Position numbers and translations under genes: made by a program. Below, in pieces: positions 20,023 to 56,038 of a stretch of DNA of 64,000 nt; position 1 is the first letter of the stretch, and each line of letters starts with the position of its first letter. The notes under the pieces were generated by a model that was not told the origin of the DNA, did not search any database, and saw only the letters and a program-made list of their open reading frames with translations. Origin of the DNA: an uncultured Myxococcales bacterium (GTDB taxonomy: Bacteria > Myxococcota_A > Polyangia > Fen-1088); contig CALAOV010000136.1 of the NCBI GenBank assembly GCA_937889515.1, positions 1,061-65,060 of the forward strand. Reading direction: 5' to 3'.

Positions 20023-22950
20023 TCAGTTAGCGGCGATTTCCTGAACCTGGCCCTTGCTTATTGCGTCGCGCACGACCTCACGCTCTTCGATAGGCAATTC
20101 CAATAGGGCCCGCTCATCGCCACTATCCCGGTAATTCAGTCCTACTCGCAGCATTTTAAGAGCGACCGCGCAATCCTCCGCCTCAGCAAGGCGTCTCTCT
20201 AAAGCAACACTAGCCTCTTTCCATTCGTGCCCGTTAGAAACGCGTATTGCCAGCGCGAGTATGACGAACCCTACGACTACGTTCGCGAACGCGTCCTCGG
20301 GCCCCCGGCTACCAAGTGCAGTCCTAACCTTCTCAACTGCTCGCACGGCCGCGTTTGGGCCTTTTCGCCGGAGCTCGACCTCGAGAAGGCCTATGATAGT
20401 CAAGGCTAGTAGCTGTGGTCCGGCATCCGAAAACACCTGGAATTCGCTCACGAACTGATTCAGCGCACCGTCGAATCCGTCGACAGCCGCTAGAGCGCGT
20501 AGATACTGCATTTTGACGATTGGGGATCCCGGCTCAAGGGTAATCGTCGTTCGCATGGCATCGAGTGCCGCCACAAAGTTTCCCCGCTGTTCTTCGATTT
20601 CGGCCATCCACTGCCACGCTCTAGCTCTCTCGGACGCTGACGGCCAGTCAGCATGGATCATGCGCCGGATCTCCCGTTCGCCCTCGGCGACCTTGCCGAT
20701 GTGAGTAAGCGCATGGATCTTCGTCAGCGTCGCAGATCCACTCCTGGGATCTATCGCCAAAGCCCTGTCAGCTGCTTGCGAAGCCTCAGCATACTCATGT
20801 TTAGCTTCGTACGCATTTGCCAGCTCTACCCATCCGTTAACCCAGTTTGGCTCGTCTTCAACCAGTCTTTGCATCTCGCTAACTGCCTCATCGACCCGAT
20901 CCAAGGCACGGAGAAGCTCACCCCGCGTTACCTTGTGCTCTCTCTCTCCTGGTTCGAGCTGCTCAAGACGAAGCAACGTCTCCAACGCCTCCGTCTCTCG
21001 GGAAAGCTCTCTCAGTAGGAATACTTTTCGATCCAGAACATACACGTCGTCCGGCTCGACCGAGAGTGCTCTATCGAGGTAGGTCAAAGCGTCCTCAGGA
21101 GTCCTTCCCAGTAACTCCGACATTGCGATATAGGGAAATATCGACTGGGGAAGGCGTTCAATGCCGCTCTGAGCTGCCGCGATGGCCTCATCGTGGCGCC
21201 CGCTCTTCTCAAGCGCCAGCGCCATAACGTAGTATGAATGAGCGTGCGTTGGATTAACATCCAACAATTTCCTTTCGCTCTCGATCGCCTCTTGGCACCG
21301 GTTAAGCGCCAAGAGAATCGTACCATGCAGGCAACTCGCACCCTTTGAAGTCGGATCTAGCTCCAGTGCTCGCGTAAGTTCGGTGAGAGCTTCGGGTGAC
21401 CTCTTCAAATCGTTGAGTGCATCTGCCTTCCGAAAGAAAAGGTAAGAATCGTTCGGATGTCGGATAAGTCCCCGTTTGGCCACTTCCAATGACGATGAAC
21501 TATTGCCGCGTCTCGATTCGATCAATGCCAGAGTGCCGAAGTCCTTGGCACTGCCGCGCTCACTTACGACTTGCTCCATCGCGCTGGCTGCCGCTACGAA
21601 ATCGCCCCTGTCGTAGCAGCGCTCCGCTTCATCGAAAAGAGCGGCCAGCAACGGCTCGGTACTGTCTCGTTCGCCTCGGTCGATAGCTTCCTCGAGATGA
21701 CAACGGTCTAGGAGATGACGATCGGTGGGCTCGTGTGAAATCGCCTCAAACCGGGTCTTAAGTTCCCTTAGCAAGAACCAACGCCGCAAGAAGTCCACAA
21801 ACAGCTCGAGATGTCTTGTGCGTTTGTCCTTTACCTCGAAGCACAGACGCATAAGTGGTTCTGCCAGTTCGCAGTATGTGTCACGACCCACCGACGTCCG
21901 TCGTACGAAGCCAAGTCGGGACAGCTCGCCTAGTTGCTTCGCCGCTGTCTGAGGAGAGATGAGGCATCGGTTGGCGACATCTTTAACCATGGTCGGAATG
22001 TGCTGCTGAGCGAGGAATTCAATGAGCTTTCGCTGTTGCGGCGCCAGTAGACGGATCCGATCCTGATAATAGGGCGTTAGGTCGTCGATCATCTTCATAA
22101 ACGGGGGGAAGAGATCGTCGAGCGACTCCCGGGTCAGGAAGTCCGACATCACGATATAGACTCGATGGAAGCCTCCGGCCAAATGGTGAATCGCCCTAGC
22201 ACGGGCTCGGCCCAGAGGTGAGTCCAGCGCGATAGCTAGATCCCGTCGGCCATCTAAAAGTGCCTTCTGCTTCAGCAGACTCAGAGCGCCTTCGAAGTCG
22301 AGCAATTCCAAACGCCGGATCGTGAAGAATCCGAAGAATGGCGATGATTGAAGTTTCATCCCGGCGAATAGTGCGGGACTTGTGGCTAAGATAGTCCAGA
22401 AGGGCTTTGACTGCATAAAGGCGCGCCAACGGTGCTGGCCCTCGGTTCCTAGTCCATCGAAGATATCGACGAGGTTTTCACAAATCAGAAGGAGAGTATC
22501 GTGTCCGACATACTCTGAGAGGAGAGACTCGGCGGTTTCGCGAGCGACCGTTGGAGAATGGGCGTGGAGGTCGTATAAACGATCTATTCTCTGCGTGAGG
22601 CCTGGTGTGGAGGACGCTAGGGCTTTGAGAATGCGGATGAGAAAGTCTAAATACGACGCGACTCCCCATTCCTCTTCATTGAGAAACGCGATTTTCAATT
22701 GCGAGCGCGCGGATGCCCAGCGGGCATCGTGAGTGAGTCGGTGGTGGAGGAGCTCAAGAAAATGCGTCTTACCGACCCCGCGCTGGCCGATAAGCAGGAA
22801 GAAGTGCTTCGCCCGTGTGGTCGCGGATTCGGCCAGCCTGCCGAGGATATTGTCGAGCAGTTCTGTTCGGCCGACGAAGAGACTATCGAGAGCCTCTGGA
22901 GTCATGTTCCCAGGGCTATAGCGAGAACTAGTGACGATCGCGCGACTCAT
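20023..22950 (-). CDS. Large P-loop NTPase (STAND/Arch_ATPase-like) with winged-helix and C-terminal TPR array
   Basis: FVGRTELLDNILGRL precedes the Walker A motif IGQRGVGKTHFL. The Walker-B-like motif is LLLICENL. A wHTH-like segment is MVKDVANRCLISPQTAAKQLGELSRLGFV. Multiple TPR-like helical repeats span residues ~450-900. The gene is about 57% GC against ~70% for the window. Confidence 0.7.
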   Translation of the reverse strand: MSRAIVTSSRYSPGNMTPEALDSLFVGRTELLDNILGRLAESATTRAKHFFLLIGQRGVGKTHFLELLHHRLTHDARWASARSQLKIAFLNEEEWGVASYLDFLIRILKALASSTPGLTQRIDRLYDLHAHSPTVARETAESLLSEYVGHDTLLLICENLVDIFDGLGTEGQHRWRAFMQSKPFWTILATSPALFAGMKLQSSPFFGFFTIRRLELLDFEGALSLLKQKALLDGRRDLAIALDSPLGRARARAIHHLAGGFHRVYIVMSDFLTRESLDDLFPPFMKMIDDLTPYYQDRIRLLAPQQRKLIEFLAQQHIPTMVKDVANRCLISPQTAAKQLGELSRLGFVRRTSVGRDTYCELAEPLMRLCFEVKDKRTRHLELFVDFLRRWFLLRELKTRFEAISHEPTDRHLLDRCHLEEAIDRGERDSTEPLLAALFDEAERCYDRGDFVAAASAMEQVVSERGSAKDFGTLALIESRRGNSSSSLEVAKRGLIRHPNDSYLFFRKADALNDLKRSPEALTELTRALELDPTSKGASCLHGTILLALNRCQEAIESERKLLDVNPTHAHSYYVMALALEKSGRHDEAIAAAQSGIERLPQSIFPYIAMSELLGRTPEDALTYLDRALSVEPDDVYVLDRKVFLLRELSRETEALETLLRLEQLEPGEREHKVTRGELLRALDRVDEAVSEMQRLVEDEPNWVNGWVELANAYEAKHEYAEASQAADRALAIDPRSGSATLTKIHALTHIGKVAEGEREIRRMIHADWPSASERARAWQWMAEIEEQRGNFVAALDAMRTTITLEPGSPIVKMQYLRALAAVDGFDGALNQFVSEFQVFSDAGPQLLALTIIGLLEVELRRKGPNAAVRAVEKVRTALGSRGPEDAFANVVVGFVILALAIRVSNGHEWKEASVALERRLAEAEDCAVALKMLRVGLNYRDSGDERALLELPIEEREVVRDAISKGQVQEIAAN

Positions 22951-24107
22951 GTCCGGTTCTCACGCCACCAGCGCTTCAGGAGCGGCCAGCGAAAGCCGTA
23001 TAGGCCGCCAGAGAGAGAGAGGTAATGGTCGCGCCGAAGATCGACGCATGTCGCTTTGACGTCCTCGTCAGTCCACTGGTCATTGCTGTGGCGTACGAGG
23101 TTTGTAAGTGTCTCGAGAGTGATGCCCCCGTCCGCACGGGCTATGGCATCTAGTACTGCCAGAGCCCGGGCTACCTCGGGAGCGTCATAGTGAGTCGAGA
23201 TGCGTTCAACGTAGTAGCCAAAGTTGGCGACGTCGTCATCGTCGGAGAGAAGCTTCGTAACCACGGCCTCGACGTCGGCGGCCATGGGTGCTCGTCCGAG
23301 GAGGCTAAGCTGGTCCACAAAGTGATGTACGTGGTACGGGTATCCTCCTGTAGCGTCGACGATCAACGCCGCCACGGCGGGTATATCAGGGGGTGGAGAA
23401 GGGAGGTGTCCAAGTGCCCTGGTGGCGACCTCTTCCGCTTCGGTTCGAATCATGGGCGGGACGGTTTCGAGCTGCATGTCGTTAATAGGTGCGTTTGAGT
23501 TGCCGGACTTTCTAAGGCCGCGCAGCACGAGATGGAGGCCAATGGACCCGTTGAGCAGAAACCGCAGTCGCGCGCCGTGCATCTGCCGGAGGTGTCTCAG
23601 GAGGTCCAGAAGCTCGATCGCTGTGTTAGGACCCTCTCGTTGGACGATGTTGTAAAGCATCAACGGAAATTCGTCCCAGATGAAGATCACCTTGTGATCG
23701 GGTTCCACTGCATCAAGGACATCCTCGATCGCCCCTGAGAGTAGGGCTTTCCATTTCGAAAAGGCTTGCGGGAGTTCGAGATTGCCGAGCTTTGTTGGCA
23801 GAAAGCCGTCCCAGACTTCGATGGCGCGTGCTTTGGCCCGCGCGGCCCGGGGTAGGTGGTCCCGAACCGTGCGATAGACGGATCGGACGAGCTCGAGGAC
23901 GCCATGAATGGCCTCGAGTTCTTGGAAGAAGGTGACCGCTCCGGTACGACCCTCCTCGTGCATTTTTAGGACGATGTGGGTTTTCCCGATTCGGCGCTCA
24001 GCTCCCAGAACGAGGCTCTGGCGCTCAAGGATCGTCCAGTAGCGGGCTACCTCGGCCGTGCGGCCGACAATTTCGTCGATGCTGAGATGGCCACCCGGAT
24101 TAATCAT
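22947..24107 (-). CDS. AAA+/Arch_ATPase-like P-loop NTPase, paralogous in its ATPase core to 20023-22950
   Basis: IVGRTAEVARYW precedes the Walker A motif LGAERRIGKTHI. The Walker B motif is VIFIWDEFP. It overlaps the downstream NTPase-TPR gene by 4 bp, and its GC is low. Confidence 0.7.
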   Translation of the reverse strand: MINPGGHLSIDEIVGRTAEVARYWTILERQSLVLGAERRIGKTHIVLKMHEEGRTGAVTFFQELEAIHGVLELVRSVYRTVRDHLPRAARAKARAIEVWDGFLPTKLGNLELPQAFSKWKALLSGAIEDVLDAVEPDHKVIFIWDEFPLMLYNIVQREGPNTAIELLDLLRHLRQMHGARLRFLLNGSIGLHLVLRGLRKSGNSNAPINDMQLETVPPMIRTEAEEVATRALGHLPSPPPDIPAVAALIVDATGGYPYHVHHFVDQLSLLGRAPMAADVEAVVTKLLSDDDDVANFGYYVERISTHYDAPEVARALAVLDAIARADGGITLETLTNLVRHSNDQWTDEDVKATCVDLRRDHYLSLSGGLYGFRWPLLKRWWRENRT

Positions 24108-24238: not shown

Positions 24239-25027
24239 CTACCCCCGCCGCGTCTTCCTTCCGTACCCCAACTCCGCCCCCCCCGACAGCACGTGATCGA
24301 CCCCCGTCGTGAACGTCGCCTCCGCCGCCAAATACAGACACAGCCGCCCCGCCTCCTCGATCGTCCCCATCCGCCCGAGCAACTGCGCCGCCTCGCCCGA
24401 CGCGCGCGTCGCGGCCGGGTCGTCGGACGCGTCGATCGCTTCCTGCCAGAGCGGCGTGTACACATTCCCCGGCGAAACGGCGTTCACGCGGACCTCGTAC
24501 TCGGCCTCGTCGACCGCCAGCGCCTTGGTCAGTGCCGTGATCGCGCCCTTCGTCGCGACGTACGTCGTCGCGTGGAGCTGGCCGATGGCGCCGACGAGGC
24601 TGGACATGTTGATGATGTTGCCCTTCACCTTGCGCAGGTGGGGCAGGGCGAACTTGCAGGCGGCGAAGATGCTCACCAGGTTCAGGTCCAGCAGGTGGCG
24701 GAAGTCCTGCACGGAGAAGTCGTCGATCGGCTTGTGGTCCGGGTGCCAGCCGGCGTTGTTGATGAGGCAGTCGAGCCGCCCGAACTTTCCGACCGTCTCG
24801 TCGATCAGCGTGCGGACGTCGTCGACCTTGCTGACGTCGCACTGGACAAAGTGGGCGCGCCCGGGCCCGTGCGTGTTGAGGTGCGCCGCGACGGCCTGGC
24901 CGTCCTCGGCGTTGCGCGCGCAGAAGACGACGTCGGAGCCGCCCTCCTCGACGAAGGCGCGCACGCACCCGAAGCCGATCCCTTTGCTGCCGCCGGTGAC
25001 GACGACGACCTTGTCTTTGTAACGCAT
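24239..25027 (-). CDS. SDR-family oxidoreductase (candidate L-fucose 1-dehydrogenase)
   Basis: The Rossmann motif TGGSKGIGFG is present. The catalytic residues are S..Y..K (SSLVG...YVATK). It is the last gene of the sugar ABC transporter operon. Confidence 0.75.
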   Translation of the reverse strand: MRYKDKVVVVTGGSKGIGFGCVRAFVEEGGSDVVFCARNAEDGQAVAAHLNTHGPGRAHFVQCDVSKVDDVRTLIDETVGKFGRLDCLINNAGWHPDHKPIDDFSVQDFRHLLDLNLVSIFAACKFALPHLRKVKGNIINMSSLVGAIGQLHATTYVATKGAITALTKALAVDEAEYEVRVNAVSPGNVYTPLWQEAIDASDDPAATRASGEAAQLLGRMGTIEEAGRLCLYLAAEATFTTGVDHVLSGGAELGYGRKTRRG

Positions 25028-25275: not shown

Positions 25276-26310
25276 TCATGCCGACCGCCGGTGGCGGAAG
25301 CGGTCCAACGCGACAGCCGCCACGATGATCGCCCCCGTCACGATCTCCTGCACCCAGTTGGGCCAGCCCATCTGCGAGCAGCCCGATTGAAGCGTTTGCA
25401 TGATGAGCGCGCCAATGAGCGCGCCCGCGATCGAACCCTCGCCGCCCGAGAGACTGCCGCCGCCGATGACGACCGCCGCGATGACGTTCAGCTCCAGGCC
25501 ATTGGCGCCGGTGGGGTCGCCGACCGTGAGGCGGGAGAACTGCATCAGGCCCGCGACGCCCGCGAAGAAACCGCCCAGGACGTAGACCGCCAGCTTGACC
25601 CGGGCGACCGGGATGCCGCAGAGGCGGGCGGCCTGCTCGTTGGAGCCGACCGCGAAGACGTGGCGGCCGAGGCGCGTGTAGAGCAGGAGGCCGCCGACCG
25701 CGAAGGCGAGGAGGAAGAGGAGCCAGACCCCCGCAGGAAAAAGCAGCCAGGCGCGGCCCGCGGGAAGACGCGCGAGGAGCTCGTTGAGCCAGGACGTGGG
25801 GGCGTCGATCTTCTGGTCGTGGGCGAGCCCCTTGGCGACACCACGGATCACCAGCATCGTGCCGAGCGTGACGATGAAGGGGACCAGGCGGAGGCGCGTG
25901 ACGAGGAGGCCGTTGAGCGCGCCGCAGGCGAGACCGGCGGCGAGGCCGCCGAGCGCGGCGAGGGTGGGGGGCGCGCCGGCGCGTAGAAGTCCGGCGATGA
26001 CCACCGTGGCGAGCGCGATGACCGCGCCGACCGAGAGGTCGATGCCGCCCGAGACGATCACGATGGTGGCGCCGAGGGCGGCCAGCGCGACGATCGTCGT
26101 TTGGCGGAGGATCGTCTCTAGATTCGCGGGGTCGGCGAAGCTGAGGCCGCGGGTGGCGGCGAGCAGCGCCGTGAAGAGGATGAAGACCGCCAGCAGGCCG
26201 GCCGCGGCGCCCAGGTTCTTGCGCAGGACCGGCGAGGCCATGAGACGCCGGGCCAGGCCGACGCGCGGCACGGGCGCCCCTCGGTTGTCGACGGTCGATT
26301 CGGCGGTCAT
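25276..26310 (-). CDS. Sugar ABC transporter permease (CUT2, RbsC-like)
   Basis: It has about 10 predicted TM segments. The ATG at 26310 overlaps the ATPase stop (ATGA). The 26412 start in the ORF track is an extension. Confidence 0.8.
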   Translation of the reverse strand: MTAESTVDNRGAPVPRVGLARRLMASPVLRKNLGAAAGLLAVFILFTALLAATRGLSFADPANLETILRQTTIVALAALGATIVIVSGGIDLSVGAVIALATVVIAGLLRAGAPPTLAALGGLAAGLACGALNGLLVTRLRLVPFIVTLGTMLVIRGVAKGLAHDQKIDAPTSWLNELLARLPAGRAWLLFPAGVWLLFLLAFAVGGLLLYTRLGRHVFAVGSNEQAARLCGIPVARVKLAVYVLGGFFAGVAGLMQFSRLTVGDPTGANGLELNVIAAVVIGGGSLSGGEGSIAGALIGALIMQTLQSGCSQMGWPNWVQEIVTGAIIVAAVALDRFRHRRSA

Positions 26311-27851
26311 GCGGCCTCGCTGTCGGTGTCGCTGCCCAGCGCCGCTTCGTGAACGAGCGAGGCTTCCGTCCACTCGGACGCCGGGCGCGCGGGGCCGAGG
26401 CGGCCGCGGCACATGACCGCGATCCGGTCGCAGACGCCGAGCAGCTCGGGGAGGTAGGAGGAGACCATGAGGACCGCCTTGGGCGGATCCTCGCGGGTCA
26501 CCAGGCCGTCGATGAGGTCGTAGATCTGCGCCTTCGACGCGACGTCGATGCCGCGGGTCGGCTCGTCGAGCAGCAGCACGTCGACGCCGTGGTGCAGGAG
26601 ACGGGCGATGGCGATCTTCTGTTGGTTGCCGCCGGAGAGCTCGCCGATCGGCTGGTCGGGGCCCTGGCAGCGCACGTCGAGCTGCGCGATCCAGCGCGCG
26701 GTCAGCGGGCGGAGCGCCGAGGGGCGGACGAGAGTGGGGACCTTCGACAATGTCAGGTTGTCGGTGACGCTAAGGCCGAGCGCGAGGCCCTCCTCCTTGC
26801 GGTTCTCGCTGACGAGCGCCATGCCTTGTGCCCAGCGGACGCCTGGTGTGGCGCTTCCGGAGTACGCGCCCAGCCTCACGCGGCCCGAGACAACCGGGTC
26901 GAGGCCCGCCAGCGCGCGCAGAAGCTCGGTGCGCCCGGCGCCGACCAGACCGGCGATCCCCAGCACCTCGCCGCGGTGGAGCGTGAAGCTGGCGCGCTCG
27001 GGCTTGCGGGCGCCGCGGAGGTCGGTCACTTCCAGCAGTGGCTCGCGCTTCCTGTCCACGTTGCGCGCCCCGCGCGGGTAGAGCTGCTCCACACGGCGGC
27101 CCACCATCAGGTCGACGATGACCGGGACCGTCGCCGTCGCCATCTCGCCGCCGCCGCGGGCGCCGCCAGCCCCGACCGTATGGCCGTCGCGCAGCACCGT
27201 GAACCGATCGGCCAGGCGCTGGGCCTCCTCGATGAAGTGCGTGATGTAGATGATGGCGTGCCCCTGCGCGCGCAGGCGGGCGATGAGGGCGAAGAGCGCC
27301 TCGGCGTCGGCTTGCGCCAGGCTGCTGGTCGGCTCATCGAGCACCAGGACGCGACAGCCGATCGCCACCGCGCGCGCGATCTCGACGATCTGCTGCGCGG
27401 CGATCGGGAGCGCGCCCGCGACGGCGCCGGGGCGGATGGCCGGGTGCTGCAGCTCCGCCAGCGCGCGCGCCGCGCGGTCGCGCATCGCGGCGCGATCGAG
27501 CAGGCCCCGACGCACTGGCTCGGCACCGAGCAGGATGTTGTCGGCCACGGTGAGGTGCGGCGCCAGCGACAGCTCCTGATAGATCATGGCGACGCCCGCG
27601 CGCCGCGCGTCCAGCGGCTCGGCCGGCGCGTAGGGGGCGCCGTCGATCCGCATCTCCCCCGCGTCCGGTTGGATGGCGCCCGACAGCACCTTCATGAGCG
27701 TGCTCTTGCCGGCGCCGTTCTGCCCCAGCAGCGCGTGCACCTCGCCCGACGCAACCACCAGATCGACGCCGCCCAGCGCCTGCGTCGCGCCGAAGCGCTT
27801 GCGCACGCCGCGCATTTCGAGCCGTGGTGCTGCGTCTACTCCTTCAGCCAT
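26307..27851 (-). CDS. Sugar ABC transporter ATP-binding protein (two fused NBDs, CUT2)
   Basis: Walker A GQNGAGKST, the signature LSGGNQQK and two NBD halves are present. Confidence 0.85.
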   Translation of the reverse strand: MAEGVDAAPRLEMRGVRKRFGATQALGGVDLVVASGEVHALLGQNGAGKSTLMKVLSGAIQPDAGEMRIDGAPYAPAEPLDARRAGVAMIYQELSLAPHLTVADNILLGAEPVRRGLLDRAAMRDRAARALAELQHPAIRPGAVAGALPIAAQQIVEIARAVAIGCRVLVLDEPTSSLAQADAEALFALIARLRAQGHAIIYITHFIEEAQRLADRFTVLRDGHTVGAGGARGGGEMATATVPVIVDLMVGRRVEQLYPRGARNVDRKREPLLEVTDLRGARKPERASFTLHRGEVLGIAGLVGAGRTELLRALAGLDPVVSGRVRLGAYSGSATPGVRWAQGMALVSENRKEEGLALGLSVTDNLTLSKVPTLVRPSALRPLTARWIAQLDVRCQGPDQPIGELSGGNQQKIAIARLLHHGVDVLLLDEPTRGIDVASKAQIYDLIDGLVTREDPPKAVLMVSSYLPELLGVCDRIAVMCRGRLGPARPASEWTEASLVHEAALGSDTDSEAA

Positions 27852-28822
27852 TTCTTGAAGTCGGGGTTGAGCAGCGCCTGCGCCGCCGGCGAAGTCATGT
27901 TCTCGCGGGTGATGAGCGTTGCGCCGGTGTCGATGCGCCTCTCCACCGGCTTACCCTGCAGGTGGTCGACCATCGCACTGACCGCCAGATAACCCATCTT
28001 GATCGGATCCTGCACCACCGTCGCGTTCAGGTGCCCCTTGGCCATGGCGTCCACCAGCTTGGGGGAGCTGTCGAACCCCACGAAGGCCACCTTGCCGGCG
28101 AAGCCGTCGTCCTCGAGCGCACGCAGCATGCCGAAGGCGGTCGACTCGTTGGGGCAGAAGATCCCCTGCACGGTCAGCGCGCCGTCGGATCCCTTGTGGG
28201 CGGTCAAGAGGTTCTCGCTGACCTTGAACGCGCTCTCCGTCGTGACGCCCCCGTACTGGTTGGAGCCGACCACCTCGATCCCCGGGACCGCGGCGATGGC
28301 GTCCAGGAATCCCTTCTCGCGTTCCGCCGTGCTCGCCGACCCTTCGGCGTAGCGGAGCATCATCACCTTGCCCTTGCCGCCCAGCAGCTTGGCCAGGTAC
28401 TCGCCCGCCAGCTGGCCGCCGCGGTGGTTGTCGGTGGCGACGAAGCTGACGATCTGGTCGGTCTTGATCTGCGAGTCGAAGGCGACCACGGGGATGCCGG
28501 CGCGGACCGCGTCGGTCACCACCGGCACCAGCGCGGCGTCGTCCAGCGGCGCCAGCACGATCCCCTTCACCCGCATGTTGATGAAGTTTTCGACCACCTG
28601 GGTCTGGTCCTCGCGGTCGTCCTCGCGCAGCGGGCCTTTCCAGATGACGTTTACCCCCAGCTCCTGCGAGGCCTTCTCGGCGCCGGCGTGCACCGACTTC
28701 CAGAACTCGTGCGTCGTCCCCTTGGGGATCACGGCGATGGCGTCGGTCGTTCGCTTCTTGCAACCCGCCCCGGCGCACAGGCCGAGCGCCAGCACGGCGA
28801 TACACGCGAGGCCTCGTTTCAT
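27836..28822 (-). CDS. Monosaccharide ABC transporter periplasmic substrate-binding lipoprotein
   Basis: The start is MKRGLACIAVLALGLCAGAGC, which carries a lipobox. It has the fold of a ribose/galactose-type SBP. The 636-aa version in the ORF track is an upstream extension. Confidence 0.8.
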   Translation of the reverse strand: MKRGLACIAVLALGLCAGAGCKKRTTDAIAVIPKGTTHEFWKSVHAGAEKASQELGVNVIWKGPLREDDREDQTQVVENFINMRVKGIVLAPLDDAALVPVVTDAVRAGIPVVAFDSQIKTDQIVSFVATDNHRGGQLAGEYLAKLLGGKGKVMMLRYAEGSASTAEREKGFLDAIAAVPGIEVVGSNQYGGVTTESAFKVSENLLTAHKGSDGALTVQGIFCPNESTAFGMLRALEDDGFAGKVAFVGFDSSPKLVDAMAKGHLNATVVQDPIKMGYLAVSAMVDHLQGKPVERRIDTGATLITRENMTSPAAQALLNPDFKKWLKE

Positions 28823-28897
28823 CGAGGCGGATAATAGGAGGTCCGCGAATTTCTGGACATGCCGATTTTCTCGGCGGCGTGCTAGAGAGGATCGGCT

Positions 28898-30070
28898 GTG
28901 GGCTCGGCCAACCGTTTTGGCGACGACCTCGACTTCCTGCAACGCCACACCGAGACGGTGGTGCTGTCGGAAGATGGCGGCGAGGCTCGCGTGGCGCTCT
29001 GTCCGGCGCTGCAGGGGCGCGTCGCGACCAGCACCACCGCGGGTCCCGCGGGACCGAGCTTCGGCTGGCTCAACCGCGAGCTGATCGGATCGCGGAAACG
29101 GGTCCCGCACATGAACATCTACGGCGGCGAGGATCGGTTCTGGCTGGGGCCCGAGGGCGGGCAGTTCGCGCTGTTCTTCGCGCCCGGCGCGCCGCAGGAT
29201 CTCGCGCACTGGCAGACGCCAGCCCCGATCGACGCCCAGCCGTTCACGCTGGTCGACAAAGCGCAGGACCGCGCCCTGCTTCGCAAGACGATGCGCCTCA
29301 CCAACGCGTCGGGCACGGTGTTCGACCTCGAGGTCGAGCGCGAGGTGCGGCTGTATCCCGCGGAGCGGACGTGGAACGAGGTGGGCGTGGCCCCGAGCCG
29401 TCGGGTCGCCGTCGTCGGGTTCGAGTCGCGCAACCGCATCACCAACCGGGACGCCGCGCCCTGGCGGTTCGACACCGGGCTCATCTCCATCTGGATCGCC
29501 GGCACCTTCTCGCCATCGCCGTCGACGATCGTCGTCGTGCCGTTCCGCCCGGGGCCGGATTCCGAGCTCGGCCCAGTGGTGAACGACCAGTACTTCGGCC
29601 GTCTGCCGCCCGATCGACTGGCCGTCAACGGGAGCACGATCTATTTCCGCGGCGACGGCCAGCGGCGCAGCAAGATCGGCGTCTCGCCCCGCCGCGCCCG
29701 GCCCGTCCTGGGAAGCTACGCCGCCAGCAACGATGCGGACGGCCACCTGCTGACGCTGGTGAACTACACGCAGCCCGCCGGAGCGCTCGACTACGTGAAT
29801 TCGCTCTGGGAGCGGCAGGACGCGCCCTACAAGGGCGACGCGATCAATAGTTACAACGATGGCCCGGCCGCGCCGGGTGCTGCACCCTTCGGCCCCTTCT
29901 ACGAGCTCGAGACGTCATCGCCCGCGCTGGCGCTCGTGCCCGGCGAATCGGCCGAGCACGTCCACCGCACGCTGCACTTCGTCGGCGCACCCGAGGACCT
30001 CGACGCCTTGGCGCGCGCGTCGCTCGGCGTCGGGATCGCCGACATCACCTCCGGCTTTGCGCCCGCATGA
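28898..30070 (+). CDS. Conserved hypothetical cytoplasmic protein, first gene of the L-fucose catabolic operon (function unassigned)
   Basis: It is 390 aa with no signal peptide. Its stop overlaps the amidohydrolase start. No family was recognised. It contains the segment NIYGGEDRFWLGPEGGQFALFF. Confidence 0.5.
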   Translation: MGSANRFGDDLDFLQRHTETVVLSEDGGEARVALCPALQGRVATSTTAGPAGPSFGWLNRELIGSRKRVPHMNIYGGEDRFWLGPEGGQFALFFAPGAPQDLAHWQTPAPIDAQPFTLVDKAQDRALLRKTMRLTNASGTVFDLEVEREVRLYPAERTWNEVGVAPSRRVAVVGFESRNRITNRDAAPWRFDTGLISIWIAGTFSPSPSTIVVVPFRPGPDSELGPVVNDQYFGRLPPDRLAVNGSTIYFRGDGQRRSKIGVSPRRARPVLGSYAASNDADGHLLTLVNYTQPAGALDYVNSLWERQDAPYKGDAINSYNDGPAAPGAAPFGPFYELETSSPALALVPGESAEHVHRTLHFVGAPEDLDALARASLGVGIADITSGFAPA

Positions 30071-30939
30071 CCAGCGAGATCCCCAGCTTCGTCGATGCGC
30101 ATGTCCACTTCTGGGACGCGGCACGCTTGCCTTATCCGTGGCTGGCGGCGGTGCCGGCCATCGCCGGCCCGCATACGCCGATCGAGCTGGCCACCGAGGC
30201 CGGCGCGCGGCTGCCGGCCGCGATCGTGTTTGTCGAGTCGGCGGTCGATCCGACGCGGGCGCGCGACGAAGTCCGCTGGGTCGAGACGCTGGCGACCGGC
30301 GAACCTCGGATCGCCGCCATCGTCGCGCAGGTGGCGGTCGACCGCGGCGGCGAGACCGAGGCGGCTCTGACGGCGCTCGCCGGCCAGGCGCGCGTGCGTG
30401 GCATCCGCCACAACATTCAGGATTGTCCCGAGCCCGATGCCTGCGTGCGCCCCGCGTTCGTCGCCGGCGTGCGAGGCGTGGGCGAGCGGGGCTGGACCTT
30501 CGATCTCTGCGTCAAGCCGCCGCAGCTCCCGGCCTGTATCGAGCTCGTGCGCGCCTGCCCGGGAACGTCGTTCGTTCTCGATCACGCCGGCAAGCCGGAC
30601 ATCCGGCGCGGGGCGCTGGATCCCTGGCGCACCCACATCGCGGAGCTGGCGCGCCTGCCCAACGTCGTCTGCAAGCTTTCGGGGCTGGTGACCGAGGCCG
30701 ATGCGGCGACCCGGACGCCGGCGGCGCTGCGCCCCTACGTCGATCATCTGCTGGCCTGTTTCGGGGCCGAGCGGCTGCTGTTCGGCAGCGACTGGCCCGT
30801 GGTCAACCTGGCGGCCAGCTACGGTCGTTGGCTCGAAACGGCGCTCGAGTTGCTCGAGCCTCTCTCGGCGGGCGAGCGCGCCGCCGTCATGGGCGACAAC
30901 ACGCGCCGAATCTACGGTCTCACCAGGGGGATGTCATGA
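30067..30939 (+). CDS. Amidohydrolase-2 family protein (L-fuconolactonase-like)
   Basis: FVDAHVHFWD is a metal-binding HxH motif. The gene sits in the operon context. Confidence 0.75.
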   Translation: MTSEIPSFVDAHVHFWDAARLPYPWLAAVPAIAGPHTPIELATEAGARLPAAIVFVESAVDPTRARDEVRWVETLATGEPRIAAIVAQVAVDRGGETEAALTALAGQARVRGIRHNIQDCPEPDACVRPAFVAGVRGVGERGWTFDLCVKPPQLPACIELVRACPGTSFVLDHAGKPDIRRGALDPWRTHIAELARLPNVVCKLSGLVTEADAATRTPAALRPYVDHLLACFGAERLLFGSDWPVVNLAASYGRWLETALELLEPLSAGERAAVMGDNTRRIYGLTRGMS

Positions 30940-31700
30940 CCACGCCGTTTCGACTCGACGGAAAGCATGCGGTGGTGACCGGCGCCGGCTCCGGCATCGG
31001 CCAGGCCATCGCGGAGCTGTTCGCGGCGCAGGGGGCGTCGGTGTTCGTGGTGGATCGCGACGAGCGGGCGGGCCTCGCCACCGTCGACGGGATCCGGGCC
31101 GCGGCGGGTCGCGCCGAGCTGGCGGTGGTCGACGTGGCGGACGAGGGCGCCGTGCTGGGGCTGGCGCGCGCTCTGCCGCCCGTCGAGATCCTGTCCGCCA
31201 ACGCCGGCATCGGTCACGTGGGCGATCTCTCGAACACCGCGGCCGCCGATCTCGACCGGCTGTATGCGGTCAACGTGCGGGGCGTCTTCAACTGCTGCAA
31301 GGCGTTTGCGCCGGGCATGATCGAACGCCGCCGAGGCAGCGTCATCAACATGGCCTCCATCGGCGGCATCGTGGCGGTGCGGCTGCGGCTGGCCTACACC
31401 ACCACCAAGTTTGCTGTGGTGGGCCTCACCAAGTCGCTGGCCCTCGACCATTCGCACACCGGCGTCCGGTTCAACTGCATCTGTCCCGGCCGCGTGGAGA
31501 CGCCGTTCGCCATGCAGCGGATCGCCGAGTCGCCCGATCCCGCGCAGGCCTATCGCGACATGGCGGGGACTCAGCTCACGGGACGGATGGCCAAGCCGGC
31601 GGAGATCGCCGCCGCCGCGCTCTACCTCGCCGCCGACGAGTCGGCCATGGTGACGGGGAGCAGCCTCATGATCGACGGCGGCTGGAGCGCTGGAAAATGA
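30936..31700 (+). CDS. SDR-family dehydrogenase (candidate 2-keto-3-deoxy-L-fuconate dehydrogenase)
   Basis: The Rossmann motif is TGAGSGIGQA. The catalytic residues are S..Y..K (MASIGG...YTTTK). It overlaps both neighbouring genes. Confidence 0.8.
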   Translation: MTTPFRLDGKHAVVTGAGSGIGQAIAELFAAQGASVFVVDRDERAGLATVDGIRAAAGRAELAVVDVADEGAVLGLARALPPVEILSANAGIGHVGDLSNTAAADLDRLYAVNVRGVFNCCKAFAPGMIERRRGSVINMASIGGIVAVRLRLAYTTTKFAVVGLTKSLALDHSHTGVRFNCICPGRVETPFAMQRIAESPDPAQAYRDMAGTQLTGRMAKPAEIAAAALYLAADESAMVTGSSLMIDGGWSAGK

Positions 31701-33055
31701 AACCGCGGAGCGAGAGCAAGAGCCAGAGCGAGAGCGACGGCGCGATCACCAGCTTGCGCGTCGTCGACGTGCGCTTTCCGACGTCGCGGCAGCTCGACGG
31801 GTCGGACGCCATGAACCCGGATCCGGACTACTCGGCAGCGTACGTGATCGTCGGGACCGATCGGGGCGACGGCCTCGAAGGGCACGGGCTCACCTTCACC
31901 ATCGGCCGCGGCACCGAGGTGGTGGTGGCGGGGATAAACGCGATCCGACCGTTGCTGCTCGGCCAACCTCTCGCCGCGTTCATCGAGGCGCCGGGCGCCT
32001 TCGTGGCGCAGCTCACCACCGGCGACAGCCAGCTTCGCTGGCTCGGTCCGGAGAAGGGGGTCATGCAGCTCGCCAATGCGGCGGTCGTGAACGCGCTGTG
32101 GGATCTGTGGGCGAAGATCGCCGGTAAGCCGCTGTGGAAGCTGCTTGCCGACATGAGCCCCGCCCAGATCGTCGAGCTGGTCGACTGGCGGTACCTGTCG
32201 GACGCGCTCACCCCCGACGAGGCCCGCCGCTCGCTCGACCGCCTGGTGCCCACCCGCGCCGCGCGCGAGGCCGAGCTGCGCGAGGTCGGCTACCCCGCGT
32301 ACACCACCTCGGTCGGATGGCTCGGTTACCCCGACGACAAGATCCGGCGCCTCTGCCGGGAGGCGCTCGACGCCGGCTTCACGCGCTTCAAGATCAAGGT
32401 GGGCGCCAACCGCGACGACGATGTCCGTCGCGCCGCGCTGGTGCGACAGGAGATCGGCCCCGACGGCGTTCTCATGATCGACGCCAATCAACGCTGGGAC
32501 GTGGGCCCGGCCATCGAGTGGGTGACCGCCCTGGCGCCCTCGAAGCCGCTCTGGATCGAAGAGCCGACCAGCCCCGACGACATCCTGGGGCACGCCGCGA
32601 TCGCCCGCGCGCTGGAGCCGCTCGGCATCGGCGTGGCCACCGGCGAGATGGTCTCGAACCGGGTGGTGTGGAAGCAGCTGCTGGCGGCGCGCGCGGTTTC
32701 GTTCTGCCAGCTCGACTTCTGCCGGATGGCCGGCGTCAACGAGATGGTGGCGACGCTGCTGCTCGCGGCGCGCTTCGGCGTCCCGGTCTGCCCCCACGCC
32801 GGCGGCGTCGGCCTCTGCGAATACGTGCAGCACGCGTCGATGTTCGACTATGTCGCGGTCAGTGCCGGGCTCGAGCGGCGGTCCATCGAATATGTCGATC
32901 ACCTGCACGAGCACTTCGTCGACCCTTGCGTGATCCGTAGCGGGTGCTATCAGGTTCCGACGGCGGCCGGGACCGGCATCACCATGAAACGCAGCTCGCT
33001 GGAGGCCTACAGCCATCCCGGCGGGTCGATCTGGAAGGAGATTCTCGCGACATGA
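31697..33055 (+). CDS. Enolase-superfamily dehydratase, L-fuconate dehydratase-like
   Basis: It is a 452-aa mandelate racemase/muconate-lactonizing-enzyme-type protein (KIKVG, IDANQRWD, EEP). Its size and context match FucD. Confidence 0.8.
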   Translation: MKPRSESKSQSESDGAITSLRVVDVRFPTSRQLDGSDAMNPDPDYSAAYVIVGTDRGDGLEGHGLTFTIGRGTEVVVAGINAIRPLLLGQPLAAFIEAPGAFVAQLTTGDSQLRWLGPEKGVMQLANAAVVNALWDLWAKIAGKPLWKLLADMSPAQIVELVDWRYLSDALTPDEARRSLDRLVPTRAAREAELREVGYPAYTTSVGWLGYPDDKIRRLCREALDAGFTRFKIKVGANRDDDVRRAALVRQEIGPDGVLMIDANQRWDVGPAIEWVTALAPSKPLWIEEPTSPDDILGHAAIARALEPLGIGVATGEMVSNRVVWKQLLAARAVSFCQLDFCRMAGVNEMVATLLLAARFGVPVCPHAGGVGLCEYVQHASMFDYVAVSAGLERRSIEYVDHLHEHFVDPCVIRSGCYQVPTAAGTGITMKRSSLEAYSHPGGSIWKEILAT

Positions 33056-33852
33056 AAATCGTTCGTTATCTCGACGGCGCGGGACGCGCGCACCACGGAA
33101 CCGAGGCGGACGGCCGCGTCCTGCAGATCGAAGGCGACATCTTCGGCGACCACGCGGTCACCAAGAAGACCGCCGAGGTCGCGCGCTTGCTGGCGCCGGT
33201 CGAGCCGAAGCAATTTCTTGGCATCGGCCTGAACTATCGACGCCACGCCGAGGAGACCAACGCCAAGATCCCCGAGTACCCGATCCTGTTCATGAAAGGC
33301 GTGAACGCCGTTGCCGATCCGGGCGGGCCGATCGTGATTCCGGGCCACCTGCCGAGCACCGAGGTCGACTACGAGTGCGAGCTGGCCGTCGTGATCGGAC
33401 GCGCGTGCAAGAACGTGTCACGGGAGCGGGCGCTCGACTACGTGCTCGGCTACACCTGCGCCAACGACGTCTCGGCCCGCGACTGGCAGATCCGCAACGG
33501 CAGCGGTCAGTGGTGCCGCGGCAAGACCTTCGACACCTTCGCGCCGCTCGGCCCTTGTCTCGTCACGCCCGACGAGATCCCCAATCCCAACGCGCTCAAG
33601 ATCGCCACCATCCTCAACGGCGAGCGCGTTCAGGATTGGACCACTTCCGACATGATCTTCGACGTGCCGCGCCTCATCGAGTTTCTGAGCGGCAGCACCA
33701 CGCTGGTGCCGGGCACCGTCATCTTGACCGGAACGCCCCACGGCGTCGGCATGGCCCGAAAGCCGCCCCGCTGGCTCAAGCCCGGCGACGTCGTCACCGT
33801 CGAGATCGAGGGGATCGGCCAGCTCACGAACCCGGTCGTCGCCGAGACGTGA
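33052..33852 (+). CDS. Fumarylacetoacetate hydrolase (FAH) family protein, 2,4-diketo-3-deoxy-L-fuconate hydrolase-like
   Basis: The motifs are GLNYRRHAEE and ECELAVVIG. Confidence 0.8.
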   Translation: MKIVRYLDGAGRAHHGTEADGRVLQIEGDIFGDHAVTKKTAEVARLLAPVEPKQFLGIGLNYRRHAEETNAKIPEYPILFMKGVNAVADPGGPIVIPGHLPSTEVDYECELAVVIGRACKNVSRERALDYVLGYTCANDVSARDWQIRNGSGQWCRGKTFDTFAPLGPCLVTPDEIPNPNALKIATILNGERVQDWTTSDMIFDVPRLIEFLSGSTTLVPGTVILTGTPHGVGMARKPPRWLKPGDVVTVEIEGIGQLTNPVVAET

Positions 33853-34074: not shown

Positions 34075-35798
34075 TCACCAAAAGACGATGTTCAAGACCA
34101 GCGTCAGCGTCAACACCAGCAGACCGAGGATCGCCGGCCGCTTGTACCAGGCCACGTCGTCTTCCTTCGGTCGGGGCGTCAACGCGTAGACCAGGCCGGC
34201 CAGCTCCCCGTCGGATTTGCGCTGTCTGGTGGCGAGCGAAACGCCCACGGTGGCGATGAAGCAGGCGGAAAAAGCCCAGATCGCGGTCCAGAAGTTCTGC
34301 GCCATCTCGCTCGGATACTGGTGCAGCCCGGGGCCGAGAATCGACAACCAGCCGCCCTTGATTCCCACTTCGGCACCCGCCGCTAACGACAACCGTGGTG
34401 GGCGGCGGCGGCGGCGGTGCCGGCCAGAAGGCCGAAAAAGGCGCCATGTCCCGTCGTCCGCCGCCAGAACATCCCGAGCAGGAAGGTCGCGAACAGCGGC
34501 GCGTTCACAAAGGCGAACACCAGCTGCAGGACGTCCATGATGTTGTTGAACTTCGCCGCCGTGTAGGCACAGGCGATGCTCGCGGCGATCCCCGCGATCG
34601 TCGCGGCGCGCCCCACGGCCAGATAGTGGGCATCGCTGGCCTTCGGGCGGATGTACGCCTGATAGATGTCGTAGGTCCAGACGGTGTTGAAGGCGGTGAC
34701 GTTGCCCGCCATCCCCGACATGAACGAGGCAATCAGCGCCGTCAGCCCCAGACCCAGCAGGCCACTCGGGAAGTAGTGGGCGAGCATGGCCGGCACGACC
34801 ATGTCGTAGTTGAGGCTGCCGCCGTTGCTCGGAAGCGAGAAGTGCGCGCCGCCGCCCGCGTCGGTGGTCAGCGCGATGGCCAGCATTCCCGGCAGGATGA
34901 CCAGGAACGGGAACAGCATCTTGGGGAACGCGGCGATGATCGGCGTCCGCCGGGCCGCGCTCATGTCTTTGGCCGCCATGGCGCGCTGGACGACCAGGAA
35001 GTCGGTGCACCAGTAGCCAAACGACAGGACGAAGCCGAGACCCATGGCGAGCCCGAACCATTCGACGCCCATCGGGTTCGATTGCGCCGATCCGGCGAAT
35101 TTCCACGAGTGTGACCAGGCGCCCTCGGGCATTCCGTTGCGCGTGGCCACGACCGCCAGTCGGCTGGTGAGGCCAGACCAGCCGCCGACCTGCTTGAGAC
35201 CGAGCAGCACGAGCGGCAAGAAGCCGAACACGATCAGGAAGAACTGCAGAACCTCGTTGTAGATGGCGGAGCGCAGGCCGCCGGTGAAGGTGTAGACAAA
35301 CACGATCGCGCCCGAAGCGGCGATGCACAGATGCAGGTTCCAGCCCAGGATGGCGCGCAGCAGGGTCGCGAGCGCGTACATCGATATCCCCGAGGACATG
35401 ACGGTCATGCCGGCGAACGTCACGGCGTTGAGCCCGCGCGTCTTCTCGTCGAAACGCAGCTTGAGGTACTCGGGAACCGAGCGCGCCTTCGAGCCGTAGT
35501 AGAACGGCATCATGAAGACGGCCACGAACACCATGGCCGGGATGGCGCCCAGCCAATAGAAGTGGCTGGTCATGATCCCGTACTTCGCCCCGGAAGCCGC
35601 CATCCCCATCACTTCCTGCGCGCCGAGATTGGCGCCGATGAACCCGAGCGCGCAGATCCAGGCCGGCAGGGCCCGCCCCGACTCGAAGAAGTCCTTCGTC
35701 CCGCTGACGCCCTTCTTCACCACGAAGCCGATGCCGAGGACGAACGCGAAGTACACGATCAGCAGGCAGTAATCGATGACGCCGAGGTGTATGAGCAT
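34075..35798 (-). pseudogene. Sodium:solute symporter (SSS family) gene with a -1 frameshift near 34390-34395
   Basis: The N-terminal 470 aa (MLIHLGVIDYCLL...LAGTAAAAAHHG) lie in one frame. The C-terminal helix and tail (LSLAAGAEVGIKGGWL...LNIVFW*) lie in another. Restoring one T in GGTTG would join them. This could be a sequencing error. Confidence 0.6.
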
Positions 35799-35875
35799 CG
35801 GATTCTGGTTGCGGCGCGAATTTACTACGCATGGCGGCACGCAGCGGATACGATTTGCGGAAAGGTGAGGGCCCG

Positions 35876-36388
35876 ATGTCGTTTCATTTTGCTTATCCAA
35901 CAGTCATCCTCTGCGGCTTGGCCTGGCTCGGGTGCGCGAGCGTCCCGCTGGGCGCCACGACCGAGGAGCTCGCGCGGGCGCGCGACCAGACCGCACAGGG
36001 CGGGACGGTATTCGCGAACGAGTGCGCGAGCTGCCACGGCCAGCGCGGCGAAGGACTCGCGAACGCTGGGGCGATCCTGGGGCCGGCTGCCCTGCCCGAG
36101 TATCCGCGGAGCGAAGGCGTGGGCGACCCGACGGTCACCGACCCTCAGCTGATCCAGATCCAGGCGCAGTCGCGGCCCGCGGGTGCGGCCTGGCGGGACC
36201 CGTTTCGAAACGCCCAGGATCTGTACACCTTCACGACCACCCATCTGCCCAAATCTCATGCGAGCGCGCTCAAGGATGGCGACTACTGGGCCGTGGTGAG
36301 CTTCCTGCTCGCGGCACAGGGAGCGAGCTTGCCACAGGGCGGCATCGGGCCCACCAATGCGGCCTCGATACCAATTCCCAAGCGCTAA
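35876..36388 (+). CDS. c-type cytochrome lipoprotein
   Basis: The signal peptide with lipobox is CGLAWLGC. The heme-binding motif is CASCHG. Confidence 0.6.
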   Translation: MSFHFAYPTVILCGLAWLGCASVPLGATTEELARARDQTAQGGTVFANECASCHGQRGEGLANAGAILGPAALPEYPRSEGVGDPTVTDPQLIQIQAQSRPAGAAWRDPFRNAQDLYTFTTTHLPKSHASALKDGDYWAVVSFLLAAQGASLPQGGIGPTNAASIPIPKR

Positions 36389-36649
36389 CGGCGACTTGGG
36401 ATAGATGCCTCTGCGCGATCCTGTGGCGCCGGGGCGCTTCTGTCCCGGGCGCAATATTATTCGGAACGGCGAGAATGGTTTTGTTCGGCTTGGCGACGAT
36501 GTTATGAGAAGTTCCGGTTGCCTCAAGACACTAAAGAACAATTACCCCTTTCCGCCTTTGAGACTTGAACCTTCCCACTCCGGTATTCGTCTTCGATTCG
36601 CGCGGCTGGCCCGGCAAGCCCGCCTCCGGGTCGCTCCTTGACGGTTCGT

Positions 36650-39750: not shown

Positions 39751-39757
39751 GCGACAG

Positions 39758-40669: not shown

Positions 40670-40742
40670 GCGCAATTTATACGCAAACGAATCGCGTTAC
40701 GCCTCGAGGGCGTCGAGGGTGACAGTGGGGCTGAACTAGAAA

Positions 40743-55833: not shown

Positions 55834-56038
55834 CGCGCGGCCGGGGCGGGCGCGTGCCGCGATCGATTCTCGGTGGCGGTCGAGTCGAGCGCCCGAGTGG
55901 GTAAGAAGTGAACCTACACGAACAAGGCGGAACTCGGCGTCGGGTTGATGCACGAGTATGAAGTAAGGCCGGAAACAATTTCGATCTTGAACCCAGCTGC
56001 TACCGGTTTGAATTGGTCTGCTATTTGTCGTTGATCGT

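Follow-up and report, generated by a model that had tools for sequence, protein, structure and literature searches.

DUF6786, a family with a predicted galactose-mutarotase-like fold and a probable, partly conserved active site: a candidate L-fucose/D-arabinose mutarotase encoded in a myxobacterial fuconate operon

Gene content of the locus

The window, i.e., the whole 64-kb stretch of DNA from an uncultured Myxococcales bacterium that was analysed here, contains at 28898-30070 of the plus strand an open reading frame of 390 amino acids with a GTG start, which we confirm as it was described in the first-pass annotation. A Shine-Dalgarno-like GAGAGGA lies 6-12 nt 5' of the start, and an in-frame TAG at 28883-28885, 12 nt 5' of the GTG, leaves no space for an N-terminal leader. 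The N-terminus of the protein (VGSANRFGDDLDFLQRH) is polar, without a hydrophobic stretch, and therefore has no signal peptide, which bears out the earlier description. The protein belongs to the Pfam family DUF6786, and its gene has the following surroundings:

24239..25027, minus strand: SDR, HSD17B14-like L-fucose/D-arabinose 1-dehydrogenase (FucA), last gene of the transporter operon; Pfam adh_short, E 1e-53
25276..26310, minus strand: ABC permease (BPD_transp_2); Pfam PF02653, E 1.2e-49
26307..27851, minus strand: ABC transporter ATPase with two ABC_tran domains; Pfam ABC_tran, E 9.6e-49, two stretches
27836..28831, minus strand: periplasmic sugar-binding lipoprotein of the CUT2 type, its gene facing away from that of DUF6786; Pfam Peripla_BP_4, E 6.5e-71
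28832..28897, no strand: divergent intergenic region of 66 nt between the sugar-binding protein (SBP) gene and the DUF6786 gene
28898..30070, plus strand: cytoplasmic DUF6786 protein of 390 aa, with a galactose-mutarotase-like supersandwich as its predicted fold; candidate mutarotase or pyranase for L-fucose/D-arabinose
30067..30939, plus strand: Amidohydro_2 lactonase (FucB-like L-fucono-lactonase); Pfam PF04909, E 8.6e-53
30936..31700, plus strand: SDR, L-2-keto-3-deoxyfuconate (L-KDF) 4-dehydrogenase-like (FucF); PDB matches
31697..33055, plus strand: L-fuconate dehydratase (FucC/FucD, enolase superfamily); Pfam MR_MLE_N/C
33052..33852, plus strand: FAH-family hydrolase (FucG-like 2,4-diketo-3-deoxy-L-fuconate hydrolase); Pfam FAA_hydrolase, E 8.2e-77

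The TGA of the DUF6786 gene (30068-30070) overlaps the ATG of the lactonase gene (30067-30069) in an ATGA at 30067-30070, in agreement with the earlier claim that the gene comes first in its operon and that its stop overlaps the lactonase start. Further ATGA overlaps occur at 30936-30939, at 31697-31700, where the ATG of the dehydratase gene (31697) overlaps the stop of the FucF-like SDR gene, and at 33052-33055. With an ATGA at every junction, the five genes form a tightly coupled operon, of which the DUF6786 gene is the first cistron.

The divergent SBP gene is 66 nt away. Alignment of this intergenic region with the same region of three relatives with proteins of 64-76% identity (L001, L002 and L084) reveals two conserved blocks, GAATTTCTGGACATGCCGATTT (28847-28868) and CGTGCTAGAGA (28879-28889), and an imperfect inverted repeat is found at 28861-28872/28885-28896. 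The conserved blocks are probably a shared promoter/operator.

The neighbours are identified by Pfam and PDB matches, upholding the recognition of lactonase, dehydratase, dehydrogenase and hydrolase steps in the first-pass annotation. The lactonase scores 178 bits with the NCBIfam FuconLaconase model, which is under the equivalog cut-off, and its best PDB match is 4dlf/4do7 (E 9.4e-35), which we take to be the Burkholderia L-fucono-1,5-lactonase BmulJ_04915. The BmulJ_04915 lactonase is named in PMC11293516. The best PDB matches of the FucF-like SDR are human BDH2/DHRS6 (2ag5, E 2.8e-49) and the 8y11/8xwk/8y4j set (E ~4e-42); 8Y11 is the L-KDFDH of H. huttiense, and BDH2 is a homologue of L-KDFDH (PMC11199699). 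The dehydratase matches human ENOSF1 (4a35, E 1.9e-166) and the L-fuconate dehydratase of Xanthomonas (1yey, E 6.3e-159), and the FAH-family hydrolase scores 212 bits, again under the cut-off, with the NCBIfam model of 2,4-didehydro-3-deoxy-L-rhamnonate hydrolase. On the other side of the DUF6786 gene, the FucA-like SDR is closest in the PDB to human HSD17B14 (E 3.4e-86, 292 bits, with other SDRs at 140 bits or less). HSD17B14 is an L-fucose dehydrogenase that accepts pyranose forms, with L-fucose ahead of D-arabinose and D-arabinose ahead of L-galactose (PMC11293516).

The likely start of the permease, judged from the translation, is the ATG at 26310-26308, which overlaps the stop of the ATPase gene. 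The SBP, with the N-terminus MKRGLACIAVLALGLCAGAGC as read from the sequence, has its best PDB match in 4wut (E 1e-46), a structure that holds D-fucose. We do not assign a specificity on the basis of this match, because D-fucose is of the wrong enantiomeric series for the pathway and an E-value of 1e-46 is too weak for transfer.

Homologues of FucA, FucB, FucC, FucF and FucG and a CUT2 ABC importer are thus all found around the DUF6786 gene and, as identified by homology, these neighbours encode the whole non-phosphorylating L-fucose/D-arabinose pathway.

A vacant mutarotase slot

The published bacterial pathway consists of FucM (mutarotase), FucA, FucB, FucC, FucF and FucG (PMC11199699), and the locus in the window has every one of these steps except FucM. 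The close homologues and the ABC importer link it to the non-phosphorylating L-fucose clusters of Xanthomonas, Burkholderia and Herbaspirillum and to the mammalian HSD17B14/ENOSF1/BDH2 set; it differs from these in having neither FucM nor FucU, and in having a DUF6786 gene at the head of the operon. No homologue of FucU, RhaM/FucM, GalM, YeaD, YphB or YihR was detected in the window and in 83 related loci, and tblastn searches of the same sequences with E. coli FucU and RhaM returned chance-level matches only. The operon has no unassigned gap able to hold a mutarotase gene.

The DUF6786 family

The first-pass annotation had left the protein unassigned and recognised no motif in it. This does not stand, as there is a full-length match to Pfam DUF6786 (PF20583), at 475 bits, the gathering cut-off being 27 (E 1.5e-142), that covers residues 6-385 of the protein and positions 2-374 of the 376 in the model. 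The family is large: at least 6,996 homologues were found at E <= 1e-5 among 8,000 candidates scored, and clustering at 50% identity leaves 1,522 representatives that match DUF6786. The coding status of the open reading frame is certain in view of this Pfam E-value and this number of homologues. The closest relatives come from records labelled Polyangia or 'uncultured proteobacterium', and further homologues are found in MAGs labelled Planctomycetota, Verrucomicrobiota, Acidobacteriota/Aminicenantes, KSB1, Rhodothermales and Polyangia, with 52-60% identity between the window protein and those from other phyla.

DUF6786 is a catalogued family, and a function assigned to it would be new. Neither DUF6786 nor PF20583 is mentioned in the open-access PMC and bioRxiv papers searched, no NCBIfam model matches the protein, and searches of the PDB with the window sequence or with a profile of 66 diverse members retrieved nothing relevant and no epimerase. 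The protein contains no GH Pfam domain; GH domains occur as separate neighbours or as fusion partners only.

Predicted fold and active site

An AlphaFold2 model of the protein, built on 37 homologues, is nearly all beta, with a mean pLDDT of 89.8 and a pTM of 0.91. Its structural matches include Slr1438, KPN_04629, E. coli YphB, YeaD, the yeast hexose-6-phosphate mutarotase and GalM, and Foldseek gave the same top matches at E-values of 2.7e-10 to 1e-6. As modelled, the DUF6786 protein has the galactose-mutarotase-like beta-supersandwich fold. The GGEDRFWLGPEGG segment, which had been thought faintly reminiscent of aldose epimerases, is the most conserved motif of the family, and the AlphaFold2/Foldseek check substantiated the hint by returning a mutarotase-type fold.

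At the sequence level this likeness disappears. None of the 66 diverse DUF6786 members matches Pfam Aldose_epim (PF01263), even at E <= 10, and hhalign comparisons of the DUF6786 profile with single E. coli GalM, YeaD and YphB sequences and with an alignment of four paralogues gave probabilities of about 5% or lower, with the C-terminal Glu strand alone aligned consistently and the N-terminal half mis-registered. The mapping of residues therefore rests on motifs and on the order of secondary structure elements, not on a three-dimensional superposition. Motif YGGEDRFWLGPEG of DUF6786 is similar to RGGVPVCWPWFG of YeaD, and FYELET corresponds to FVCVET of YeaD, FFCLEP of YphB and LALESE of GalM, that is, to the strand with the catalytic Glu; hhalign also pairs FYELET with the YphB and GalM strands, at low probabilities. 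The reference for the catalytic base is Glu309 in E. coli GalM and Glu304 in the L. lactis enzyme, both in the C-terminal strand. In the 66 members, E336 is invariant and E338, within FYELET, is at least 90% conserved; D253, within FRGDG, is likewise invariant. By strand order, D253 is a plausible counterpart of the GalM Asp. It appears from these motifs and the strand order that the active-site Glu of mutarotases (E338) is kept, and probably also the Asp (D253).

The histidines are a different matter. The catalytic His (H175 in MTNHVYF of GalM; ALHTYF in YeaD) has no conserved counterpart in DUF6786 under either plausible alignment: the candidate positions, I196 and T247, are both variable, and residues 105-353 contain no invariant or near-invariant His, the only near-invariant ones being H354 and H360. 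The first histidine of mutarotases corresponds to Tyr75 or Asn/His104. As the catalytic His is missing, the chemistry of GalM is not simply transferable to DUF6786. The family has instead a residue set of its own, with R80, R148, N183, D253 and E336 invariant and R41, K259, R240, H354 and H360 near-invariant; the conserved Arg/Lys residues (R41, R80, R148, R240 and K259) could point to an anionic or larger ligand.

We conclude that DUF6786 belongs to the mutarotase fold superfamily as a family of its own, outside PF01263, and that its active site is conserved in part. From the members of PF01263 (GalM, the YeaD/YMR099c hexose-6-phosphate mutarotase, the YihR sulfoquinovose mutarotase, YphB (3nre) and Slr1438 (3k25)) it is set apart by the lack of detectable sequence homology, by about 100 additional residues, including an extra N-terminal helix and insertions, by the loss of conservation at the catalytic and positioning histidines, and by the export or lipoprotein signals that most of its members carry. 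YphB and Slr1438 are themselves uncharacterised members of the aldose 1-epimerase family.

The absence of the canonical catalytic His would also fit a protein that binds sugar without converting it, i.e., a periplasmic or cytoplasmic carrier or sensor that passes the sugar to a transporter, a dehydrogenase or a regulator, and supersandwich domains are in fact often non-catalytic, as in the P1 domain of YidC and the N-terminal domains of glycoside hydrolases. We find this very improbable: identity of 52-60% across phyla, together with a dense set of invariant polar residues that includes the mutarotase-type Glu, is an enzyme-like pattern, a catabolic operon with a stop/start overlap at every junction begins with this gene, and a dedicated SBP is already encoded at the locus.

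Genomic context of DUF6786 in relatives and in other phyla

The fuconate operon is not the general setting of DUF6786, an idea that we rejected since only two (L001 and L002) of the 80 genome loci share it; a separate look-up found it also in the close relative L084/L085. In relatives with 64-69% identity, the DUF6786 gene is divergent from SBP/ABC genes and has an HSD17B14-like SDR gene nearby. In L084 an opposite-strand gene lies between the DUF6786 and lactonase genes, and in the P0082 locus the lactonase and dehydratase genes are not nearby and the transporter linkage is kept. Within the clade of the window, DUF6786 keeps two stable partners, the divergent SBP/ABC transporter and the HSD17B14-like SDR. 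This linkage, seen also where the lactonase and dehydratase genes are separated or not nearby, ties DUF6786 to the free-sugar end of the pathway.

The same observations bear on the alternative that the protein acts later, on an acidic intermediate, for example as an isomerase of L-fucono-1,5-/1,4-lactones or as a sugar-acid epimerase. Such a role would be in keeping with the overlap between the DUF6786 stop and the lactonase start and with conserved Arg/Lys residues that could bind a carboxylate. The known lactonase family, however, reportedly takes both lactone ring sizes, the coupling to the lactonase gene is not conserved (L084, P0082) while the transporter linkage persists, and most homologues are exported and have genes for glycosidases and sugar importers, but none for sugar-acid enzymes, as neighbours. 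Thus, even though the unstable 1,5-lactone is converted by rearrangement into the 1,4-lactone (PMC11293516), we consider this alternative quite improbable.

A hydrophobic leader is present in 73 of 78 DUF6786 homologues, 43 of which also have a lipobox-like motif, and it is absent only in the clade of the window. Fucose- or arabinose-related genes occur near DUF6786 in 22 of the 80 loci (14 of 40 among the loci of at least 12 kb); the context of the other 58 is uninformative. GH172 is found within 11-13 of the 80 loci and ExoMA2-like GH116 within 8-9. The one GH116 neighbour tested (L021) is closer to an exo-beta-D-arabinofuranosidase (8ic6, E 5e-78) than to beta-glucosidases (1e-18 to 1e-22), and the one GH172 neighbour tested (L017) matches structures of D-arabinofuranosidase and of alpha-fructofuranosidase. 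A FucP-like MFS gene is located directly downstream in five loci of Verrucomicrobiota and Acidobacteriota (L017, L022, L062, L067 and L048); L022 has FucK-like, FucA-like and FucP-like genes and GH172. In a KSB1 locus (L059), the DUF6786, SBP, ATPase and permease genes are consecutive and are accompanied by GH172 and a FucI-family isomerase. In E. coli, FucP, FucI, FucK and FucA serve both L-fucose and D-arabinose, and the context partners of DUF6786 all handle one or the other of these sugars. The exo-D-arabinofuranosidases of GH172 and GH116 yield just one furanose anomer each, and this anomer subsequently mutarotates (PMC10509167); fucoidan loci of marine Planctomycetota also carry GH116 and GH172 (PMC11685898).

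Two other associations were set aside. The SDR in a DUF6786-SDR fusion (P0121), which might have been a mutarotase-dehydrogenase, is just 30-34% identical to either SDR of the window, and the fusion has a signal peptide; and the conserved neighbours in Pirellulales (aspartate kinase, phosphoglycerate mutase and homoserine dehydrogenase) are taken to reflect synteny of the lineage rather than functional linkage.

Fusions of DUF6786 with GH172 occur in either order, and there are also fusions with a GH43/32-like domain. Fusion or adjacency to GH domains is equally consistent with a hydrolase or an accessory domain as with a mutarotase. DUF6786 might then be a new exo-glycosidase or lyase that has adopted the supersandwich scaffold and acts, alongside GH172/GH116, on small D-arabinofuranosyl, L-fucosyl or fructofuranosyl glycosides, the copy in the window cleaving an imported glycoside in the cytoplasm. 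The fusions and the adjacency, the export signals and the many acidic residues of DUF6786 speak for such an activity; a cytoplasmic copy behind a CUT2 importer of the monosaccharide type speaks against it, as does the fold, which matches enzyme-type mutarotases better. We regard a glycosidase or lyase as unlikely.

Proposed function

We propose, giving it an even chance of being correct, that DUF6786 is a new, non-canonical mutarotase or pyranase for sugars of the L-galacto configuration. The reaction is suggested by the fold, by E338 and the probable D253, by the vacant slot in the pathway and by the transporter linkage, and the putative substrate class by the neighbours in the window and in other phyla. 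What these contexts have in common is a free sugar of the L-galacto configuration, at a stage after its release or import and ahead of the first enzyme of catabolism, for which a mutarotase is the most economical reading. The proposal upholds in part the roles suggested in the first-pass annotation, namely a mutarotase or epimerase, a lactone isomerase or a new accessory step. The window protein would be a distant relative of aldose 1-epimerases that works in the cytoplasm on the free sugar at the entry to the pathway. It would probably speed the exchange of anomers of L-fucose, D-arabinose or L-galactose, and possibly also that of furanose and pyranose forms, would supply the pyranose anomer to the HSD17B14-like 1-dehydrogenase, and would stand in for the FucU or FucM/RhaM mutarotase of the known L-fucose pathways. 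The exported DUF6786 proteins, often lipoproteins, would have this function in the periplasm, where they would act on sugar freshly released by GH172/GH116 furanosidases and prior to its uptake via FucP-like or CUT2 transporters.

A different scope is conceivable, though rather unlikely in our estimate. The whole family may be specific to furanose sugars, as a pyranase-mutarotase of D-arabinofuranose/L-fucofuranose or as a new glycosidase, with an active site that keeps the mutarotase Glu and replaces the catalytic His. It would then form, with GH172 and ExoMA2-type GH116, a conserved periplasmic module that harvests D-arabinan (from actinobacterial cell walls) or furanosidic fucose in Planctomycetota, Verrucomicrobiota, Acidobacteriota and Myxococcota.

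With respect to known systems, the proposed mutarotase would share with the L-fucose mutarotases of the FucU/RbsD and FucM/RhaM(RhaU) types an accessory role at step 0, and it is likewise encoded with transporter and pathway genes. The latter enzymes, however, have small unrelated folds (104 aa in RhaM, 140 aa in FucU), whereas DUF6786 has 390 aa, a different fold and no similarity to them in tblastn searches. NanM (YjhT) is an exported, periplasmic sialic-acid mutarotase that converts the anomer released by a glycosidase into the form that is taken up, and so offers a precedent for what we propose that most DUF6786 proteins, the exported ones, do; it differs in being a beta-propeller and in its substrate, and the DUF6786 copy in the window is cytoplasmic.

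Implications

If the proposal is true, DUF6786 adds to the mutarotases of L-fucose/D-arabinose a third type that is not orthologous to the others and whose active site, on a known scaffold, is non-canonical, and the mutarotase scaffold can work without the canonical catalytic histidine. Lineages with neither FucU nor FucM would thereby have the missing step 0 of the oxidative L-fucose/D-arabinose pathway. A function for DUF6786 would also be an annotation for at least 7,000 proteins, or about 1,500 clusters at 50% identity, the carriers of which are abundant degraders of glycans in soil, sediment and sea: PVC bacteria, Acidobacteriota, KSB1, Rhodothermales and Polyangia. That DUF6786 is repeatedly paired with D-arabinofuranosidases of GH172 and ExoMA2-like GH116 suggests a harvest of D-arabinose or related furanosides in these phyla. 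This is relevant to how cell walls of the mycobacterial type, and possibly fucoidan, are turned over.

Operon organization and the divergent intergenic region

Translational coupling across the five-gene L-fucose/D-arabinose operon headed by the DUF6786 gene is unusually uniform, with an ATGA stop/start overlap at each of the four gene junctions (positions 30067, 30936, 31697 and 33052; window 30067-33055). In the 66-nt region between this operon and the divergent transporter operon, comparison with three other loci of DUF6786 homologues (L001, L002 and L084) reveals two preserved blocks, GAATTTCTGGACATGCCGATTT and CGTGCTAGAGA (window 28847-28889); both are kept even though the proteins of these loci are just 64-76% identical. 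To judge from the sequence, the blocks probably form an operator/promoter common to both operons, and TGGACA followed by TAGAGA could place a transcription start nearly at the GTG of the DUF6786 gene.

The transporter operon begins and ends with the following genes:

27836-28831, minus strand, sugar-binding lipoprotein
24239-25027, minus strand, second SDR, last gene of the operon

The closest structural relative of the lipoprotein is 4wut (E 1e-46), which a list in a preprint gives as one of the few PDB entries with D-fucose, a sugar of the enantiomeric series opposite to that of the adjoining L-fuconate enzymes. This similarity is too weak for transfer of specificity.

Neighboring open reading frames

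Other genes and long ORFs on either side of the sugar locus are listed here:

20023-22950, minus strand, 975-aa AAA_16 and TPR protein, start overlapped by the stop of the 386-aa ORF
22947-24107, minus strand, 386-aa ORF downstream of the second SDR
34075-35832, minus strand, long ORF
35331-36152, plus strand, long ORF
36565-38160, plus strand, long ORF
38194-39750, plus strand, long ORF
39758-40669, plus strand, long ORF
40743-41666, plus strand, long ORF
42379-44733, plus strand, 784-aa protein with BNR/Sortilin-Vps10 repeats, downstream of the sugar locus
49498-56142, minus strand, 2,214-aa ORF

A Pfam search of the 386-aa ORF gave no match; it and the AAA_16/TPR protein (20023-24107) could be paired in a regulatory or STAND-type role, with no relation to the sugar locus. 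None of the six long ORFs tested in window 34075-41666 matched Pfam at E <= 0.001, and some may be wrong-frame ORFs in high-GC sequence.

DUF6786 homologs and related loci

In the 690-aa homolog P0121, a signal peptide and DUF6786 are followed by a classical SDR domain at the C-terminus. Export would be odd for an NAD(P)-dependent SDR, so the gene call may have fused two genes, or the protein may be a true oxidoreductase of the periplasm. In several loci of Planctomycetota (L003-L018, Pirellulales and relatives), DUF6786 lies divergently to a conserved gene block that encodes a homoserine dehydrogenase, a phosphoglycerate mutase-like protein, an aspartate kinase and an SNase-like nuclease. Its position beside this housekeeping block looks like lineage synteny, not a functional operon.

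Among the nearest structural relatives of the DUF6786 protein is E. coli YphB (3nre), whose uncharacterized operon (locus L083, E. coli K-12 2673816-2679367) also includes yphC, encoding a Zn-dehydrogenase, and yphDEF, encoding a CUT2 ABC transporter. The window locus shares this architecture.

Human HSD17B14 is by a wide margin the top PDB match of the second SDR (E 3.4e-86, 292 bits), which is a candidate bacterial L-fucose/D-arabinose 1-dehydrogenase. The ENOSF1-like gene matches ENOSF1 at E 1.9e-166, and the HSD17B14-like, ENOSF1-like and BDH2-like set of the window is a gene-for-gene counterpart of the proposed mammalian pathway of L-fucose degradation.
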